From the sequence record PP582757.1: a stretch of 64,000 nucleotides of DNA. One strand, written 5' to 3'. Shown in pieces: positions 36,204 through 46,234 of the stretch; within the stretch, counting starts at the first letter, position 1; every line of letters begins with the position of its first letter. A program made the position numbers and the translations under genes. The notes below the pieces were generated by a model. It was not told the DNA's origin, ran no database searches, and saw only the letters and a program-made list of their open reading frames with translations. This stretch comes from Klebsiella phage vB_KM5a1-KLB31.

Positions 36204-36647
36204 CTATACTCGGGTCACACCACCAGTAAATTTCTTAAGCTCATTTGCAAAACCTAATGCAACTTCGCGTTCACGGGTTTTAGCATTCATCAATTGGGCT
36301 TTAGAGTCTTTACGTTTTTGAAACCATTTCTTAAAAATATTGTTTGAAGCAATAGTACCATCAGACTTCAGACGGTTTTGCCGACGAAGACGTACATAAC
36401 GACACCAACGAGTCCAGAAATAGAACTGCTGGGCAATAACTGCTGCCCAAGTGAAATACCAAACCTGGGCAGAACCTTGGAACCAAGGACCAAAAATACT
36501 TAATCCCCACCAGGTCATCATACCAGTACCAAAAGCATATAGTGCAGATAAAACTACAATACCGAACATAACAAAGTCTTCATCAGACCAGCTTGCATTC
36601 ATCTTCCATAAGTATAGTTGCTTAATAATCATATTATTTTCCTTCAA
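36204..36647 (-). CDS. Membrane protein
   Basis: 147 aa with 3-4 TM helices and a basic C-terminal tail. Confidence 0.5.
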   Translation of the reverse strand: MKENNMIIKQLYLWKMNASWSDEDFVMFGIVVLSALYAFGTGMMTWWGLSIFGPWFQGSAQVWYFTWAAVIAQQFYFWTRWCRYVRLRRQNRLKSDGTIASNNIFKKWFQKRKDSKAQLMNAKTREREVALGFANELKKFTGGVTRV

Positions 36648-37563
36648 ATGGCAGAATCATGTGCTCGTTTTTCTTAAAGCGGTCGATGTAATCATTTACA
36701 CCCAGAGTCTTATACATATGAACTACTTTGTGGTAGTTTTCCCAAGCGTATTCACGGAACCAACCACTAGTAATCGACGTACAGACCTTCTCTAAGGCCA
36801 TCATGAAAGAATGCTCTGAAGATACATTCTGGAAGTTATTAGGAACCTGGGAACGTTCCAGGGCTAACACACATGTCTCTTCGTAGACACCTGCCAGTTT
36901 AATAGCTTCAGGCAGTGCTTCGAACTTTTCACGGCTTGTCATGACTTCAGAACCGTCCTTCATGTAGAAGGTATAAGCAGGCCGGTCTGCCAGAGCTACA
37001 GCACGGTGGATTGAATCATGGTCTAATGTGTAGATAGTGTCATTAAAGAACGTCGATTTATTCACATCCAGTTTTGGATGATTATAGCTCAACGTTTCCT
37101 TCTGGCGTTCAGTGACAATCAGCTCAAGAGGAGTTGAAAGTTTAACGCCTTTGTTACGAAGGAAACGAATGTGATGCATTGTCTTACGGAAGAACGGATT
37201 GTTCTTTTTGAAACGATGAGAAAGCTTAATAGCCAGGCACATCTCTGGAGTGGCCCAATGGAAGCCTGAAAGATTATCTTTCTTACATTTAAGATCGGCA
37301 TAATTCAAAAGCATCGCATTCGAATTTGTGTTGTAGCCTTCTTTAACGATATATGCTTCAAAGTAAGTCTCGCGACCATTGTGCATACATTTGAAAGCAC
37401 GAACGTCTTCGTTTTCTACTTCGACTTCAGCACCGAACATACGACCTTTGAAAGCTTCCCAATCAGGTTCTTCTGCGATGAAGTCCCAATCTGAATTTTT
37501 AATATCGTCGTAGCCAATCAAACCGTGGTGCTCAAGAGCACGTGAACCGATAACTAACATCAT
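36634..37563 (-). CDS. Hypothetical protein (309 aa)
   Basis: Long ORF; no motif recognised. Confidence 0.5.
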   Translation of the reverse strand: MMLVIGSRALEHHGLIGYDDIKNSDWDFIAEEPDWEAFKGRMFGAEVEVENEDVRAFKCMHNGRETYFEAYIVKEGYNTNSNAMLLNYADLKCKKDNLSGFHWATPEMCLAIKLSHRFKKNNPFFRKTMHHIRFLRNKGVKLSTPLELIVTERQKETLSYNHPKLDVNKSTFFNDTIYTLDHDSIHRAVALADRPAYTFYMKDGSEVMTSREKFEALPEAIKLAGVYEETCVLALERSQVPNNFQNVSSEHSFMMALEKVCTSITSGWFREYAWENYHKVVHMYKTLGVNDYIDRFKKNEHMILPFEGK

Positions 37564-37624
37564 AATATTTTCCTCTCTGTTTGTGTAGGAGTATCATAAC
37601 ATGGTTCCTACACGTTGTAAACAC

Positions 37625-37894
37625 TTAAATTTCTTGGCAGTACACATTATGAGTATGGATATACTCTTCGGCAGAACCTCGTACAAGAGGTACGATGCAA
37701 CCGTTGACATCCTCATCATATGGATCGATGCCGCAATGGGCATCTTCGAATCTGATGTTGTAATCAGACTTTTTGTACTTGATGTTGAAGATTTCTTCAA
37801 AACGCTTACGAGTGATTTTGTAACACTCTTCATCGCCATTAGGATGATAAATCATGTTTACCTCAACACCGATAAGATGAAGAAGCCCAGCCAT
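37625..37894 (-). CDS. Hypothetical protein
   Basis: 89 aa. Confidence 0.4.
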   Translation of the reverse strand: MAGLLHLIGVEVNMIYHPNGDEECYKITRKRFEEIFNIKYKKSDYNIRFEDAHCGIDPYDEDVNGCIVPLVRGSAEEYIHTHNVYCQEI

Positions 37895-38105
37895 TTACGG
37901 CGATACTGTTCCCATCGACACGAATACCGTTATGGAAATCAATACCACTACGGTCTGTGAAGTACATAGTTACATCTTCACGTTCTTCGGCGACGATTTG
38001 GAATAGGTTTTCTAATGCTGCCTGAGCAGTACGAACAGCGCAATCTAATTCACGACGAGACATTTTGATTCCTTCTACACATTTGGATGAAAGCATCGAG
38101 TTCAT
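37863..38105 (-). CDS. Small protein of the W-x-SSS-x-x-C tail family (member 1)
   Basis: 80 aa; the C-terminus is ...NGWASSSYRC. Confidence 0.5.
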   Translation of the reverse strand: MNSMLSSKCVEGIKMSRRELDCAVRTAQAALENLFQIVAEEREDVTMYFTDRSGIDFHNGIRVDGNSIAVNGWASSSYRC

Positions 38106-38340
38106 ACATTTTAAATTCAGGTGAATCGACGCTGATAATTTTAGTCCATAAACAACGTATTGGGTCCCAACTCATATCAGGCCAAGTAAACGGGTCTGGT
38201 TGTTGTCGATGATACACAGCTACAGCACGCCTGATATAATCGGTTCCATAAATCGAATGAGCTACATGCGATAATGCTATACATGTTGTCCCATCGAGTC
38301 CATCTACTTCAAGATAGCCATCGACAATACGAAGTTTCAT
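38050..38340 (-). CDS. Hypothetical protein
   Basis: 96 aa. Confidence 0.4.
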   Translation of the reverse strand: MKLRIVDGYLEVDGLDGTTCIALSHVAHSIYGTDYIRRAVAVYHRQQPDPFTWPDMSWDPIRCLWTKIISVDSPEFKMYELDAFIQMCRRNQNVSS

Positions 38341-38402
38341 TTTCTACTCCTTTCTAAACAAGTACGGGTATCTTATCACTAAGACACCCGTTTGTAAACT
38401 GC

Positions 38403-38645
38403 TTAGCAACTCTGCATAGAAGAACTATACCAGAAGCCTTGGTCGTGAGGCAAGTAGTTCTCATCACGAATCCATTTGTAGTCCTCGAATTCACTAGAAC
38501 TCACAGGAATGTATTCTTCATTACCGACAGTGAAGATTTCACCTGTAGCGTCGGCTATGTCTACGCCTTTACTGATAAGGTCACGAATGGCCTTTTCAAC
38601 ATTAGCTACAGTTTCAATTTTAATAGTCATATGTTTCCTTAGCAA
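38403..38645 (-). CDS. Small protein of the W-x-SSS-x-x-C tail family (member 2)
   Basis: 80 aa; the C-terminus is ...GFWYSSSMQSC. Confidence 0.5.
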   Translation of the reverse strand: MLRKHMTIKIETVANVEKAIRDLISKGVDIADATGEIFTVGNEEYIPVSSSEFEDYKWIRDENYLPHDQGFWYSSSMQSC

Positions 38646-38869
38646 GAAGAAGGTTGCCAGATGGAGCCATCGGCTTCAACATTGAATTCACGACCAGTTT
38701 CTTCGCCATAACAAGAAGAGTTATTCCAGTCATCAAAACGCATGCTACCATCAGAGGTATCAAATTCAAAACCAAAAGAATCGGCTGCTGCGAGTTCGCT
38801 TACTTTGTTAAACAGAACGGCCAGTTCTTTAGCCGCTTGTTCGAGTTCAATATTACCAGATACAGACAT
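38639..38869 (-). CDS. Small protein of the W-x-SSS-x-x-C tail family (member 3)
   Basis: 76 aa; the C-terminus is ...SIWQPSSC. Confidence 0.5.
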   Translation of the reverse strand: MSVSGNIELEQAAKELAVLFNKVSELAAADSFGFEFDTSDGSMRFDDWNNSSCYGEETGREFNVEADGSIWQPSSC

Positions 38870-38878
38870 AATAATTCC

Positions 38879-39163
38879 TTAACATTCCATAGAAGAAGAT
38901 ACCCAGCCACCAGATTCGAGGCTAGTATAATATGAGTGTTGATTAACGACAGCCCAATTAGGATGCCCCATTTCGGTTTCACGTTCAAGGTCTTTTTTCA
39001 AAGCACCAGGCGAATAATATGTTCCACCCATACCATACGCTGGTGACATTTCAAAACTTAGACCATATTTGTCGGCTACTTTCTTTGCATGGTTAATAGC
39101 TTCGCAAATGGCTGCCTCGGCAGCAGCCATAGCCAGTTCGGGTTTATGTTTAGACATTAACAC
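38879..39163 (-). CDS. Small protein of the W-x-SSS-x-x-C tail family (member 4)
   Basis: 94 aa; the C-terminus is ...GGWVSSSMEC. Confidence 0.5.
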   Translation of the reverse strand: MLMSKHKPELAMAAAEAAICEAINHAKKVADKYGLSFEMSPAYGMGGTYYSPGALKKDLERETEMGHPNWAVVNQHSYYTSLESGGWVSSSMEC

Positions 39164-39477
39164 ATCTCGCTTGAAGAAATCCAGACGCCTTCAGTAAGAT
39201 TACCATTACCATCAAGGTCGTAACCATTACATGAACAAGCATATTCAATATAATATTCAGATGCATTACTGCCTTTAGGATAATAGGTTTCGCCATTACC
39301 GTAATCGCCACGGCTCATAGAGATGCCGTATTTGTCCATCAGTTGTTCGGCACGTGCCTCATCAACCGGTTCAAGCAGAGCTTCAATGGCCTTACGAGCA
39401 GAAGCGGCATCAGTTACCAGAGGAATACGGGTTTCGATTACTTCCATTGCTTCAGCTTTGTTTTTAGGATTTTTCAT
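39157..39477 (-). CDS. Small protein of the W-x-SSS-x-x-C tail family (member 5)
   Basis: 106 aa; the C-terminus is ...GVWISSSEMC. Confidence 0.5.
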   Translation of the reverse strand: MKNPKNKAEAMEVIETRIPLVTDAASARKAIEALLEPVDEARAEQLMDKYGISMSRGDYGNGETYYPKGSNASEYYIEYACSCNGYDLDGNGNLTEGVWISSSEMC

Positions 39478-39869
39478 TTTCTTCTCACATTTCGAATAAA
39501 AAGTTCAGTGGATTTACGCTCATTCACAAGGTCGCGAGCAGCACGTTCGGCAGTCCATTCTTTAAGATGTTTCTTCCACGGCAAATATTCTTTAAAGAAA
39601 TATTGCACACGTTCACATTGATAGGTCATATACCAAGTTAATGGAAACCCACAAATCAAATACTTCGTTACTTCAATAACCCAGGGAGCTACTTCATCTT
39701 TCATGCCTTTGTCAAAAATAATCATATCACTAAAACATGCAGCAAGTGCTAATGTGGCAGAGACCAATGCTGCAATTAGCATAGAGCCAAATTTGTCTAA
39801 GTTACGACGGAACATTGGTTTCATTTTATAACTCATTATTGGCCTCTGCTTTCTGGCGTGCTTTAACAT
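39474..39869 (-). CDS. Membrane protein
   Basis: 131 aa with 2-3 TM helices. Confidence 0.45.
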   Translation of the reverse strand: MLKHARKQRPIMSYKMKPMFRRNLDKFGSMLIAALVSATLALAACFSDMIIFDKGMKDEVAPWVIEVTKYLICGFPLTWYMTYQCERVQYFFKEYLPWKKHLKEWTAERAARDLVNERKSTELFIRNVRRK

Positions 39870-40536
39870 TTGTGCGACATTGCTCTACGAAGTCAAGAAC
39901 AATAACAGATTTATCTTGATTGCGAACATTTTCAGCATGAAAATATTGGTCAATCTTAGGGAACCAATATTCTTTTAAAGACTTGTTCCGATCATCAGAA
40001 TAACCAAGTTTACCTACTTTTGTATGATACGAGCTAACAATAATGCCAAATGGCTTCTTATTATAAGTGAGCTCAATATGATAAAGGTCATCACGACAAT
40101 TATTGAAATCACGTACTGATTTCTTCAATGATGTCCAGTGGTCTGCTTTATCATTAAATGCAAAGATTGAATATTCAAGTGACTTGATATCAACAATCTT
40201 TAATGAACCCTGTGAATCAAGTTCGGCAAAAAATTTCGTGATATTAGCGATATCATCAATAACAAATCCGGCGACTAATGCGGCCTTATAATCATCACGA
40301 TATGCAGAAAAGCGATGAAGTTTCCAATCAGAATCCGAACAACTTCCACCACACGGATATTTCGCTGCTGCCTGAACGACTTCAATAGGCACACGGGTTT
40401 GCATAGCAAATTGCTGAATCATATCCCGTTTTGAACCACTTAAACTACGTGTGATATCAATAACATTATCGGTGTAATCTCCGACTGGCATTTTAGGTTT
40501 AGTTTCGTAGCCGCCATCACCTTCATAGAAACTCAT
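39826..40536 (-). CDS. Hypothetical protein
   Basis: 236 aa. Confidence 0.5.
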   Translation of the reverse strand: MSFYEGDGGYETKPKMPVGDYTDNVIDITRSLSGSKRDMIQQFAMQTRVPIEVVQAAAKYPCGGSCSDSDWKLHRFSAYRDDYKAALVAGFVIDDIANITKFFAELDSQGSLKIVDIKSLEYSIFAFNDKADHWTSLKKSVRDFNNCRDDLYHIELTYNKKPFGIIVSSYHTKVGKLGYSDDRNKSLKEYWFPKIDQYFHAENVRNQDKSVIVLDFVEQCRTNVKARQKAEANNEL

Positions 40537-44101: not shown

Positions 44102-44177
44102 TGGCAGGCGCTTGAGGAATCGAACCCCAGACCAATGGATTTGGAATCCACCGCTCTACCAACTGAGCTAAGCACCT
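44102..44177 (-). tRNA. tRNA-Trp (anticodon CCA)
   Basis: Minus-strand AGGTGCT-TA-GCTC-AGTTGGTA-GAGC-G-GTGGA-TTCCAAA-TCCAT-TGGTC-TGGGG-TTCGATT-CCTCA-AGCGCCT-G-CCA gives a full cloverleaf, with the CCA encoded. Confidence 0.85.
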
Positions 44178-44180
44178 AAT

Positions 44181-44256
44181 TGGGGTGACCTATGGGACTT
44201 GAACCCATGACTACAAGAATCACAATCTTAAATTCTACCAACTGAATTAAGGCCAC
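44181..44256 (-). tRNA. tRNA-His (anticodon GUG)
   Basis: GTGGCCT-TA-ATTC-AGTTGGTA-GAAT-T-TAAGA-TTGTGAT-TCTTG-TAGTC-ATGGG-TTCAAGT-CCCAT-AGGTCAC-C-CCA. The discriminator C73 is typical of His. Only 3 nt separate it from tRNA-Trp. Confidence 0.85.
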
Positions 44257-44289
44257 AGCAATGTTCACTCAAATGAACGAACATTAATC

Positions 44290-44365
44290 TGGCGGATGTG
44301 CACGGATTCGAACCGCGGACCAATCACTTAACGGGCGACCGCTCTACCAACTGAGCTACACATCC
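44290..44365 (-). tRNA. tRNA-Asn (anticodon GUU)
   Basis: GGATGTG-TA-GCTC-AGTTGGTA-GAGC-G-GTCGC-CCGTTAA-GTGAT-TGGTC-CGCGG-TTCGAAT-CCGTG-CACATCC-G-CCA. The anticodon stem has two G-U pairs and position 33 is C. Confidence 0.8.
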
Positions 44366-44366
44366 T

Positions 44367-44894
44367 TTATCTTGCAGATTTTATTTTGTTTTCTTTAAAT
44401 AGGTCGATAATAGAGTTAACATCGCCTTTAATCCACTCACCATCAGCATTTAAAGCTTTATGGAAAGAAAACTCTTCTTCAAAACGTTTATCACTGAAAT
44501 AGTAACATTCTAATTTATAATCACGTAAAGGGCAGTAGGATTGATAAGTGTTCAACCTATCATAAACATCCACTGTAGAACCTATTTTATACCATCCTTC
44601 AAAAGCAGGATTAGTTACGCAATAAATGAAACCTTCTTTAATACCTTTAGAAGAATTACCATTTCTGAAATACTTTACACGCAACAATGATAACTTGGTG
44701 AAGTTCACTTGTCGTGAAATCAATTTATCAGACTTTCGTGAAGCAGTGTCTGTATACTGGAGCTTAAAATTAGGATGAATATATTTGAAATAAATGTATT
44801 TAGCGAACTCAGTATTTATATCAAAATCAATCCCACTAATACCTTCTTCATTAAGATAAGCACTATATTGATTAATTATTTTGGCCTTATCCAT
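44367..44894 (-). CDS. GIY-YIG / T5orf172-type nuclease-domain protein inserted in the tRNA cluster (Seg-like, putative mobile)
   Basis: The C-terminal block GFIYCVTNPAFEGWYKIGSTVDVYDRLNTYQ has the G-h-I-Y...N...YKIG-T...R spacing of GIY-YIG/T5orf172 domains. The ORF is markedly AT-rich relative to its surroundings, and its position is analogous to T4 segB. Confidence 0.55.
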   Translation of the reverse strand: MDKAKIINQYSAYLNEEGISGIDFDINTEFAKYIYFKYIHPNFKLQYTDTASRKSDKLISRQVNFTKLSLLRVKYFRNGNSSKGIKEGFIYCVTNPAFEGWYKIGSTVDVYDRLNTYQSYCPLRDYKLECYYFSDKRFEEEFSFHKALNADGEWIKGDVNSIIDLFKENKIKSAR

Positions 44895-44910
44895 ATTCTT
44901 CTCATAAATT

Positions 44911-44988
44911 TGGTAGGACGTGAGGGATTTGAACCCATCGACATCTCGATTAAAAGTCGAGTGCTCTAACCAGCTGAGCTAACGTCCT
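44911..44988 (-). tRNA. tRNA-Lys (anticodon UUU), with an imperfect T-stem
   Basis: AGGACGT-TA-GCTC-AGCTGGTTA-GAGC-A-CTCGA-CTTTTAA-TCGAG-ATGTCG-ATGGG-TTCAAAT-CCCTC-ACGTCCT-A-CCA. The acceptor, D and anticodon arms are perfect, but the T-stem has 3 G-C pairs plus T/T and A/C mismatches. Confidence 0.65.
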
Positions 44989-45000
44989 TCTTAATTCTAT

Positions 45001-45237
45001 TTATTCAGTATATCTCTTAAACTGTAAAGCAAAATCTTCATCAACTTTAGTTAAGAAGTGTCCTGCCTTAAATCGTTTAGAGCTACCTTCGACTTCTACA
45101 CCATATCCGTTCTTACCAAGGACTCGACCAACTCGCATTTCGCCAGGGTCACCCATTGAATTACAACGAACACCGTACAGAACAAAATCATTTTCGAATA
45201 CCGGAGCATTTTTCCGGTCAGTAATTAATTCTATCAT
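45001..45237 (-). CDS. Hypothetical protein
   Basis: 78 aa. Confidence 0.4.
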   Translation of the reverse strand: MIELITDRKNAPVFENDFVLYGVRCNSMGDPGEMRVGRVLGKNGYGVEVEGSSKRFKAGHFLTKVDEDFALQFKRYTE

Positions 45238-45244
45238 ATTAACC

Positions 45245-45700
45245 TTAAAGCATATTACGTTTTAAGTTTTCACGAACTCGATAAAGGTTTGAACAGAATT
45301 CCTGTTCAGTCAAAACAGTTTCGTTCTTTTTCGACTTACCCATCGAGTGAGTTAATGTAGCGTTCTGCGTAGCCAGGAGCGCTCTCTGGAACCCTTCATT
45401 CAAGGCTAATTGATTATATGCTCGTTCGATAAGAAGACTGTAGGCGTCACTCTGGCGTTGCATAGGCACACCTTTCCAGTATAATGTCTGGAGTCGCCAC
45501 CAATTCTTTTTCTTACCTTTGAACTTAGCTTTCTTACCAACTAGAGTACAAACATGTTCCTGCATTTCTACTGAAGAAAATTTCAGTGATTGCAAAAAGC
45601 CTTCCATCGAAGCACATTGTACACCATCAATTTCAAAAGCATGAGGTGCAAAGTTACTTAGTGAAGAAGCAGGATATCCTGCGCCTGAACCGATATCCAT
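45245..45700 (-). CDS. Hypothetical protein (N-terminal D-I-G-S-G-A-G motif)
   Basis: 151 aa; MDIGSGAGYPASSL resembles a SAM-binding glycine loop, but the protein is too short for a full methyltransferase. Confidence 0.45.
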   Translation of the reverse strand: MDIGSGAGYPASSLSNFAPHAFEIDGVQCASMEGFLQSLKFSSVEMQEHVCTLVGKKAKFKGKKKNWWRLQTLYWKGVPMQRQSDAYSLLIERAYNQLALNEGFQRALLATQNATLTHSMGKSKKNETVLTEQEFCSNLYRVRENLKRNML

Positions 45701-45924
45701 TAATCACCCCATTGCATAATCATTGCGATATCATCAATATCTGTCACGATGTTTTCAATTTCATTGATAAAATTAGACAGATATGGAACCACATTAGGAG
45801 TATAAAGCCAATTGGCACATTGAATGCATTGATTGCCTACTTTATCCTGAAATATTACAGCTTCGGAATGGCTTCCACCTTTCCATCGTATTAAAGCAAA
45901 CCCTAATGGATATTTCTGACGCAT
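45700..45924 (-). CDS. Hypothetical protein
   Basis: 74 aa. Confidence 0.35.
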   Translation of the reverse strand: MRQKYPLGFALIRWKGGSHSEAVIFQDKVGNQCIQCANWLYTPNVVPYLSNFINEIENIVTDIDDIAMIMQWGD

Positions 45925-45944
45925 TATATTTTCCTCAGTTGTTT

Positions 45945-46100
45945 GTTCACAGCGGGGTGGATTCGAACCACCAATATTAAGTCACTCATGCTCCAAGCAT
46001 GCTAGGGCACTTACCCCGGACGGAATCGAACCGCATCTACAATACCTATCGCCATGTCTGGTGGCCCTTCTGGGAGTCTAACCCAGCTTACACCGATTAT
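45945..46100 (-). ncRNA. Two tRNA-like elements with canonical T-arms (GGTGG-TTCGAAT-CCACC; GCGG-TTCGATT-CCGT) but non-canonical remainder
   Basis: The T-loop and T-stem consensus is perfect, but I could not form 7-bp acceptor stems. They may be degenerate tRNAs or small stable RNAs. Confidence 0.3.
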
Positions 46101-46145
46101 GAGTCGGGTACTTTCACACGAAAGTATAAAGGGCCTGAATAAACT

Positions 46146-46234
46146 TGGTACGGGTGACGAGATTCGAACTCGTAAGAGCTTAAGCCCTATGGCATTTTAA
46201 GTGCCATGCGTACTGCCAATACCGCCACACCCGC
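46146..46234 (-). tRNA. tRNA-Leu (anticodon UAA), class II with a long variable arm
   Basis: GCGGGTG-TG-GCG-GTATTGGCAGTA-CGC-A-TGGCA-CTTAAAA-TGCCA-TAGGGCTTAAGCTCTT-ACGAG-TTCGAAT-CTCGT-CACCCGT-A-CCA; 89 nt. Confidence 0.8.

Follow-up and report, generated by a model that had tools for sequence, protein, structure and literature searches.

In bacteria, nucleotidyltransferases of the MenT/AbiEii type are known to block tRNAs, as toxins and as effectors of abortive infection. MenT1 is controlled by MenA1, a helical protein of 68 amino acids (aa) encoded upstream, and the helix of MenA1 alone controls the enzyme (PMC10435456, PMC11375011); for the AbiE toxin-antitoxin system, the comparison made here was based on PMC3985639. 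In the HEPN-MNT system, the nucleotidyltransferase MntA poly-AMPylates its partner HepT (PMC7641770). Here, a locus of Klebsiella phage vB_KM5a1-KLB31 (sequence record PP582757.1) was analyzed in which five small minus-strand genes, designated g1 to g5, encode proteins with a common C-terminal tail and lie upstream of a gene for a predicted nucleotidyltransferase. Coordinates (Table 1) refer to the window, i.e., the whole stretch of 64,000 nucleotides that was analyzed.

A previous reading of the window, made from sequence only, had reported five minus-strand open reading frames (ORFs) sharing this tail, and the tails were found as reported: VWISSSEMC, GWVSSSMEC, IWQPSSC, FWYSSSMQSC, and GWASSSYRC for g1 to g5 in order, with W-x-(S/P)-S-S-x(0-3)-C-stop as common pattern. 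All stop-to-stop ORFs of at least 40 aa within the window were screened with W.{1,2}SS.{0,4}C-stop. Only g1 to g5 matched (5/639), with 0.02 matches expected from composition-matched random tails. The array of five genes also stood; the lengths given for it (76-106 aa) did not, as ATG starts agreeing with those in Edwardsiella phage PEi26 result in proteins of 66-106 aa (Table 1). Recent duplication, considered in the same reading as another source of the shared tail, was ruled out: the paralogues have no DNA similarity and their conserved Ser codons differ (TCT, TCA, AGC, and AGT), which argues for old paralogy with the tail kept by selection at the protein level. In orthologues from related phages each tail is nearly unchanged (that of g2 fully so), at 54-88% identity of the bodies.

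The nucleotidyltransferase gene was absent from the sequence-only reading, and the recognition or modification signal proposed there has become more concrete, since tail genes almost always adjoin this one gene. All seven distant (metagenomic) family members examined were located 0-2 genes upstream of a gene encoding DUF7277 and DUF7275, on the same strand, in loci with differing neighbours (PolA/DnaB/Thy1/T7 gp5.9; PolB/RNA ligase/ART; NAMPT/DUF5906/rIIB; PhoH/Metallophos/SIR2). Further loci were fetched via the small proteins using a degenerate DNA pattern and subsequently scanned with hidden Markov models. The same arrangement was present in every one of these loci with enough flank, and no tail-family member was found away from the enzyme gene in the loci for which flank was available. 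Using the enzyme profile, 80 enzyme-anchored viral contigs (38-100% identity) were fetched, 72 of which carry one to six tail or family ORFs upstream; the eight exceptions include L130, whose tail is degenerate (DEWYESRC), and L131, which is truncated. The order is reversed in Xanthomonas phage X1 and Stenotrophomonas phage Moby, with the tail genes closely following the enzyme gene. The pair was also found in ESCO13 (Phapecoctavirus), Pseudomonas phage M5.1 (Otagovirus), Acinetobacter phage fHyAci03, Aeromonas phage Assk, and two jumbo contigs, and the linkage spans at least eight phage backbones. A conserved third gene was sought downstream of the enzyme gene and not found (58 clusters among 96 loci).

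The enzyme was matched in 732 phage records (tblastn). Among 185,579 species of bacteria and archaea that were scanned, six hits were obtained, all on contigs of metagenome-assembled genomes (MAGs), five of which also carry tail ORFs. By these counts the enzyme is essentially missing from bacterial genomes and the module is to be regarded as phage-specific. Gene content thus firmly indicates a conserved phage module consisting of one MenT/AbiEii-like nucleotidyltransferase and one to six small acidic tail proteins, and a functional partnership between the two is highly probable.

Alternatively, the small proteins could be independent effectors that hit host targets, as nucleic-acid mimics or anti-defence proteins, with the tail as a structural or metal-binding element and the adjacency to the enzyme gene following only from a shared variable early region. 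The proteins are small and acidic like many phage inhibitors, the e.2-e.5 region harbouring the array is plastic and holds other genes in T4, the tail Trp belongs to the modelled fold, and some enzyme genes are without partners. Against this stand the adjacency in at least eight backbones with otherwise different neighbours and in both gene orders, and the confinement of family members to the vicinity of the enzyme gene. This explanation fits the linkage poorly and is considered improbable.

In the surroundings of the module, a few further observations were made. In several Phapecoctavirus-like and other large phages (L046, L052, L054, L146, and L147), SIR2-like, metallophosphoesterase, and PhoH genes are located a few kb away from the module, and in L048 and Moby a NAMPT gene is near it. 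In one enzyme locus without tail genes (L079), the upstream ORF at 1176-1484 starts with MKTYQEFINE, resembling the capsid targeting sequence at the N terminus of the internal proteins of T4.

The tail-protein family (phrog_899/phrog_4882) comprises 356 clusters at an expectation value (E) ≤1e-3 in an exhaustive profile search. Among the best 150 members, an exact W-x(1-2)-S-[ST]-x(0-4)-C end is present in 136 and one with a single additional residue in 10, bringing the tail to 146/150; within the enzyme-anchored loci it is present in 123/125 family hits. In an alignment of 112 members, every sequence has the W, one S, and the C, a second S is almost fully conserved, the W-to-C distance is six residues in 105 members, and the terminal Cys is the sole Cys in 66. 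The motif is repeated internally in some members, up to three copies, and always occurs twice in g3-type proteins. The family has a median isoelectric point (pI) of 4.5 and a charge of −8. As had been claimed, the tail is the most constrained part of the proteins and is conserved over differing bodies.

The suggestion that the family is undescribed was borne out. Scans of the five tail proteins and the two tail-less ORFs of the array region against Pfam, NCBIfam, and PADLOC returned nothing meaningful, the PHROGs are of unknown function, no similar fold was found in the PDB, and none of the family members examined has a name or Pfam domain. No publication was found on DUF7275/DUF7277, phrog_899/phrog_4882, or this phage nucleotidyltransferase module. 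Tail proteins adjoining this uncharacterised enzyme gene in hundreds of unrelated phages point to an undescribed module of enzyme and partner proteins.

Variants of the tail were also seen. One subtype of larger proteins terminates in ...GWISSSICW, with a Trp following the Cys. One lineage has an extra family member downstream of the enzyme (L120 5104-5367, L123 3116-3421, and L126 5073-5537), with an altered tail, GWQPSAG[IT]C, and extra Cys pairs.

Sorting signals typically take the form of an invariant short peptide at the end of diversified bodies, and the tail could accordingly be read by host or phage machinery as a tag for sorting, packaging, export, or degradation. In T4, the internal proteins IPI, IPII, and IPIII carry their capsid signal at the N terminus, where it is cleaved by the prohead protease. 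The N termini of g1 to g5 share no column except Met1, which disagrees with the capsid-packaging tag that had been suggested. Export or lipidation is likewise at odds with the N termini, which are polar or charged without a hydrophobic stretch (read by eye) and lack a signal peptide or lipobox; together with the acidity of the proteins (pI 4.05-5.7) this suggests that they are cytoplasmic. Nothing was found in support of a degron. Furthermore, the conserved gene in the neighbourhood encodes a nucleotidyltransferase, with neither protease nor transporter genes conserved there, and the 10/150 relatives with a residue past the Cys imply that a free Cys carboxylate is not essential. A sorting tag also fits the linkage poorly, and this reading is very improbable.

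The bodies were compared after removal of the tails. The five proteins had been stated to have nothing but the tail in common. When orthologue alignments were compared profile to profile (hhalign), the bodies of g1, g2, and g4 proved instead to be homologous (probabilities of 99% for g1-g2, 94% for g1-g4, and 92% for g2-g4); the statement holds for g5 (≤4% against any other), and g3 is marginal (40% for g2-g3). The phrog_899 match spans the whole length of g1 to g4, and g5 matches phrog_4882. In g1, g2, and g4, the body consists of an N-terminal amphipathic helix, 'AD..G..F.F', 'YG.GG.YYP', and an acidic linker, in that order. The C-terminal module of the tail proteins is formed by an amphipathic helix, a short beta hairpin, and the terminal G-W-x-S-S-S-x-x-C. 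Judged from these alignments, g5 is a different body carrying the same end. The tail thus occurs on at least three body types in the window, and on proteins of 145-175 aa in other phages; g5, g3, and these larger proteins have no detectable homology to the YGMGG type without the tail, yet all cluster at the enzyme gene. In the larger proteins, unrelated N-terminal domains are fused to the same helix-strand-tail module (L087 2454-3335, L094 1938-3316, and L101 1769-2685). For g1, the AlphaFold model had a mean predicted local distance difference test score (pLDDT) of 77 overall and of 91-95 over residues 61-100, the C-terminal half. The tail Trp is placed within a confident strand of the fold (pLDDT 91-95), and the final six residues form a short terminal helix (mean pLDDT 80).

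The enzyme matched DUF7277 with 94.9 bits and DUF7275 with 261.7 bits (Pfam gathering cut-off 27), and both domains were matched by all eight diverse homologues examined; the sole other Pfam match among these was DUF1059 (E 0.12) in one homologue. A few GenBank records already label the protein 'nucleotidyltransferase'. An AlphaFold model built from an 18-sequence alignment (pLDDT 85, predicted template modelling score 0.78) has an alpha/beta N-domain and an all-helical C-domain. Its closest structures are MenT1, ANT(2''), MenT3, and MenT4, with LnuA as a further structural neighbour, and it has the MenT-type fold with the hG[GS]...DxD...E motifs. The protein thus models confidently as a predicted nucleotidyltransferase of the Pol-beta superfamily with a MenT/AbiEii-like shape. 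The signature G6-S7...D25-x-D27...E69 is retained in at least 91 of 100 homologues, which argues that the enzyme is probably active. DUF7275, a helical domain of about 190 aa, is the best-conserved part, with many invariant Lys, Arg, His, and Asp residues and a KVCTSITSGWFRE motif, and has no counterpart in the PDB. A match of the enzyme profile to the RNase L KEN-domain among PDB sequences (E 0.19) was weak and treated as chance.

Nearly every enzyme with tail partners has the Cys of the KVCTS motif. This Cys is missing in the enzymes of Gordonia phage Yvonnetastic, Mycobacterium phage WXIN, Streptomyces phage Ankus, Vibrio phage VH7D, and Ochrobactrum phage OC, and no tail ORF was found within 3.5-4 kb of these five. 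This co-occurrence suggests that the enzyme and tail cysteines may meet. Separately, it was observed that C-T-S-I-T-S-G-W of the enzyme, when reversed (W-G-S-T-I-S-T-C), matches the W-to-C spacing and Ser/Thr pattern of the W-x-S-S-S-x-x-C tail of the partners; the loci considered for this pattern and for the missing Cys were the enzyme gene of the window and L144, L145, L146, L152, and L153.

From the linkage and the structural comparison we infer the following. The C-terminal tail module would be the element that ties the small acidic proteins to the nucleotidyltransferase encoded downstream. The Trp-anchored end, with its Ser-Ser...Cys exposed, would dock on the enzyme near the conserved KVCTSITSGWFRE segment and bring the two conserved cysteines of tail and enzyme close together. 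The small proteins would then be exchangeable regulatory or specificity subunits, several diversified partners being available per catalytic subunit, and would either restrain the enzyme, as antitoxins do for MenT/AbiEii, or steer it to different targets. The enzyme itself would most likely act early in infection, adding nucleotides to the 3′ end of an RNA or to some other hydroxyl acceptor. The acidity of the partners fits occupation of a nucleic-acid-binding groove. For the tail as the contact element, the balance of evidence is mildly favourable. The explanation as a whole, in which docking serves a non-covalent regulatory or adaptor role and the tail is not a covalent acceptor, is put forward tentatively.

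Several findings weigh against this docking explanation. Membership of the enzyme in Pfam AbiEii/DUF1814 was not detected for any of the eight homologues, in a search reporting matches up to E 10 with filters that drop most matches above about 0.1. For approximately 10% of the enzymes with the Cys, no partner could be detected within 4 kb. The Cys correlation comes from about five lineages, uncorrected for phylogeny, and the KVCTS segment is a helix end and loop in the AlphaFold model of the enzyme. The invariant residues of the tail are nucleophiles (Ser, Ser, and Cys), hinting at chemistry over docking. Finally, many phages hold two to six old paralogues, with subtypes recurring across families, where one antitoxin would suffice; adaptors or substrates therefore fit better than a plain antitoxin, and the diversity of the bodies and the old paralogues kept across phage families point more to adaptors.

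The main alternative is that the tail is a covalent acceptor: the enzyme would nucleotidylylate an invariant Ser (or the Cys) of each tail protein, and the array would be a set of clients that are matured, activated, or switched. Several unrelated bodies with one tail are clustered beside one enzyme, the invariant residues are nucleophilic at a fixed W-to-C spacing, the motif is doubled inside g3-type proteins and reaches three copies in some relatives, and the catalytic carboxylates of the enzyme are retained. In addition, the structural neighbours ANT(2'') and LnuA transfer adenosine monophosphate to hydroxyls, and enzymes of the nucleotidyltransferase fold that modify a partner protein are known, such as MntA acting on HepT (PMC7641770). 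The Trp and the start of the tail are, on the other hand, modelled inside the fold, and no lyase or cyclase is conserved nearby. To our knowledge, no MenT/AbiEii-type enzyme modifies a protein other than itself, and the protein nucleotidylylation known so far for the Pol-beta fold hits Tyr. A covalent acceptor is considered rather unlikely. In a variant, further chemistry might follow, e.g., elimination and formation of a thioether with the terminal Cys. A dedicated phage 'tag and enzyme' pathway, with recognition of W-x-S-S-S-x-x-C, O- or S-nucleotidylylation of the tag, and perhaps a ring with the terminal Cys, is regarded as doubtful.

The features of the locus are listed in Table 1. Identity over bases 37500-40000 reaches 98% with Edwardsiella phage PEi26, 97% with PEi20 (Kanagawavirus, T4 relatives), and approximately 77% with Kosakonia and Enterobacter phages. 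By this identity, the window is from a T4 relative resembling PEi26. In PEi26, the counterpart of the array is located between e.2 and e.5, where every gene is annotated as hypothetical; in the syntenic region of T4, neither the tail family nor a nucleotidyltransferase gene was found. Genes of the array overlap or are separated by 7-11 nt, the 62-nt gap after g4 being the exception. The start of g1 overlaps the stop of the upstream gene (ATGA), and the stop of g1 overlaps the start of g2 (TAATG). The two motifs of g3 are WNNSSC (internal) and WQPSSC (terminal), and this double-motif subtype is also present in ESCO13 and Assk. The tail protein g4 was matched in 114 phage records (tblastn). The ORF that follows g4 lacks the tail, as had been noted in the sequence-only reading. 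No counterpart was found within the arrays of the other lineages examined, and from its distribution it is taken to be outside the conserved module.

Table 1. Features of the tail-protein locus in the window, in order of transcription on the minus strand.
Feature	Position	Strand	Length	Description	Match
tRNA genes (five)	44102-46234	-		Trp, His, Asn, Lys, Leu; about 5-7 kb upstream of module	
ORF upstream of g1	39474-39869	-	131 aa	hydrophobic, membrane-spanning by eye; lineage-specific	phrog_31588
g1	39157-39477	-	106 aa	acidic (pI 4.4); subtype 'YGNGETYYP ... VWISSSEMC'	phrog_899, E 2e-18
g2	38879-39157	-	92 aa	canonical subtype 'ADKYGLSF...AYGMGGTYY...GGWVSSSMEC'	phrog_899, E 2e-18
g3	38639-38869	-	76 aa	very acidic (charge −11.5); end IWQPSSC	phrog_899, E 1e-7
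g4	38403-38630	-	75 aa	'...NEEYIP...GFWYSSSMQSC'	phrog_899, E 5e-11
Hairpin	38364-38391	-		12 bp, GUGA tetraloop; in 62-nt gap after g4, sole long gap of array	
Tail-less intervening ORF	38050-38340	-	96 aa		phrog_32323
g5	37863-38063	-	66 aa	'...NGWASSSYRC'	phrog_4882, E 3e-32
Tail-less four-Cys ORF	37625-37855	-	76 aa	between g5 and nucleotidyltransferase gene; lineage-specific	phrog_3723
Promoter-like sequence	37593-37621	-		TTTACA-17-TATGAT with extended TG; just upstream of nucleotidyltransferase gene	
Nucleotidyltransferase gene (predicted)	36634-37563	-	309 aa	two domains	DUF7277 (residues 2-89), DUF7275 (residues 108-294)
ORF after nucleotidyltransferase gene	36204-36632	-	142 aa in PEi26 annotation; 147 aa from listed TTG start	hydrophobic, membrane-spanning-looking; lineage-specific	phrog_9350

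The hairpin overlaps a T4-early-like, promoter-like sequence (TTTACA-17-TAAGAT, consensus scan) and may delimit transcripts inside the array or serve in RNA processing or stability. Because of the second promoter-like sequence, the nucleotidyltransferase gene may also be transcribed separately from the array. In the scan of the array region for promoters and terminators, the number of sites was not above that in shuffled sequence. Hydrophobic ORFs lie on either side of the module. A tRNA cluster is located 1.5 kb from the related enzyme gene of Yvonnetastic as well, and tRNA genes near the enzyme may be relevant if it acts on tRNA 3′ ends.

A structurally related counterpart of the bacterial toxins and abortive-infection effectors is thus carried by phages themselves, on T4-like, Phapecoctavirus, Otagovirus, jumbo, and other backbones. 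The module suggests either that phages use a defence-type enzyme under tight control or that a protein-tagging pathway has gone unseen. If true, the latter would mean that virulent phages have a new pathway of post-translational modification and that the MenT/AbiEii class has a new activity. In practice, a C-terminal G-W-x-S-S-S-x-x-C beside DUF7275 provides a simple annotation rule for hundreds of phage genes and makes a large group of 'hypothetical' early genes accessible to tests.

Compared with described systems, the array resembles clusters of ribosomally synthesized and post-translationally modified peptides (RiPPs), such as lanthipeptides, in that several precursor-like genes lie beside one enzyme gene and a Ser-rich C-terminal core is followed by a Cys 3-5 residues later. 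The phage proteins are, by contrast, folded domains of 60-170 aa with the Trp in the fold. No LanB, LanM, LanKC, radical-SAM, dehydratase, cyclase, or protease/transporter genes were found nearby in the window or in the seven distant loci (Pfam), contrary to the RiPP-like recognition sequence that had been proposed. With the internal-protein locus of T4 it has in common small, diversified early or accessory genes in the same quarter of the genome whose products share a short signal at one terminus; g1 to g5 lack the capsid targeting sequence at the N terminus.

The pairs LPXTG/sortase, PEP-CTERM/exosortase, and GlyGly-CTERM/rhombosortase are C-terminal tags and enzymes that were found by co-occurrence. 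As in these pairs, proteins that are otherwise diverse have a short invariant motif at the C terminus and occur together with a single enzyme gene. The tags of the three pairs contain a transmembrane helix and serve membrane sorting, and their partner is a transpeptidase or protease, whereas the phage tail proteins are soluble and acidic, bear a tag of eight residues at the very C terminus, and have a nucleotidyltransferase as the enzyme. In HEPN-MNT, too, the gene of a minimal nucleotidyltransferase of the Pol-beta fold adjoins that of a small partner, on which the enzyme acts directly, which is a precedent for a covalent acceptor. Unlike HepT, the tail proteins have neither a HEPN domain (Pfam) nor a conserved Rx4-6H motif (alignments), the candidate acceptors are C-terminal Ser/Cys and not Tyr, and the phage enzyme is larger, MenT-like, and has several partners.

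MenAT1 and AbiE share with the phage module a small protein encoded immediately upstream on the same strand and the catalytic motif of the Pol-beta fold. They differ from it in several respects. The phage module is nearly missing from bacteria (6 MAG contigs among the species scanned), and its enzyme has no sequence match to Pfam AbiEii and carries the highly conserved DUF7275 as an extra domain. The phage partners belong to another fold and family, ending in the invariant W-x-S-S-S-x-x-C, and are not members of the known antitoxin families (AbiEi/COG5340 and MenA1). Each phage enzyme has one to six diversified partners versus one. In the docking explanation, tentative as it is, the tail proteins would most likely act on their enzyme in a manner comparable to that of MenA1 on MenT1, the closest structure.

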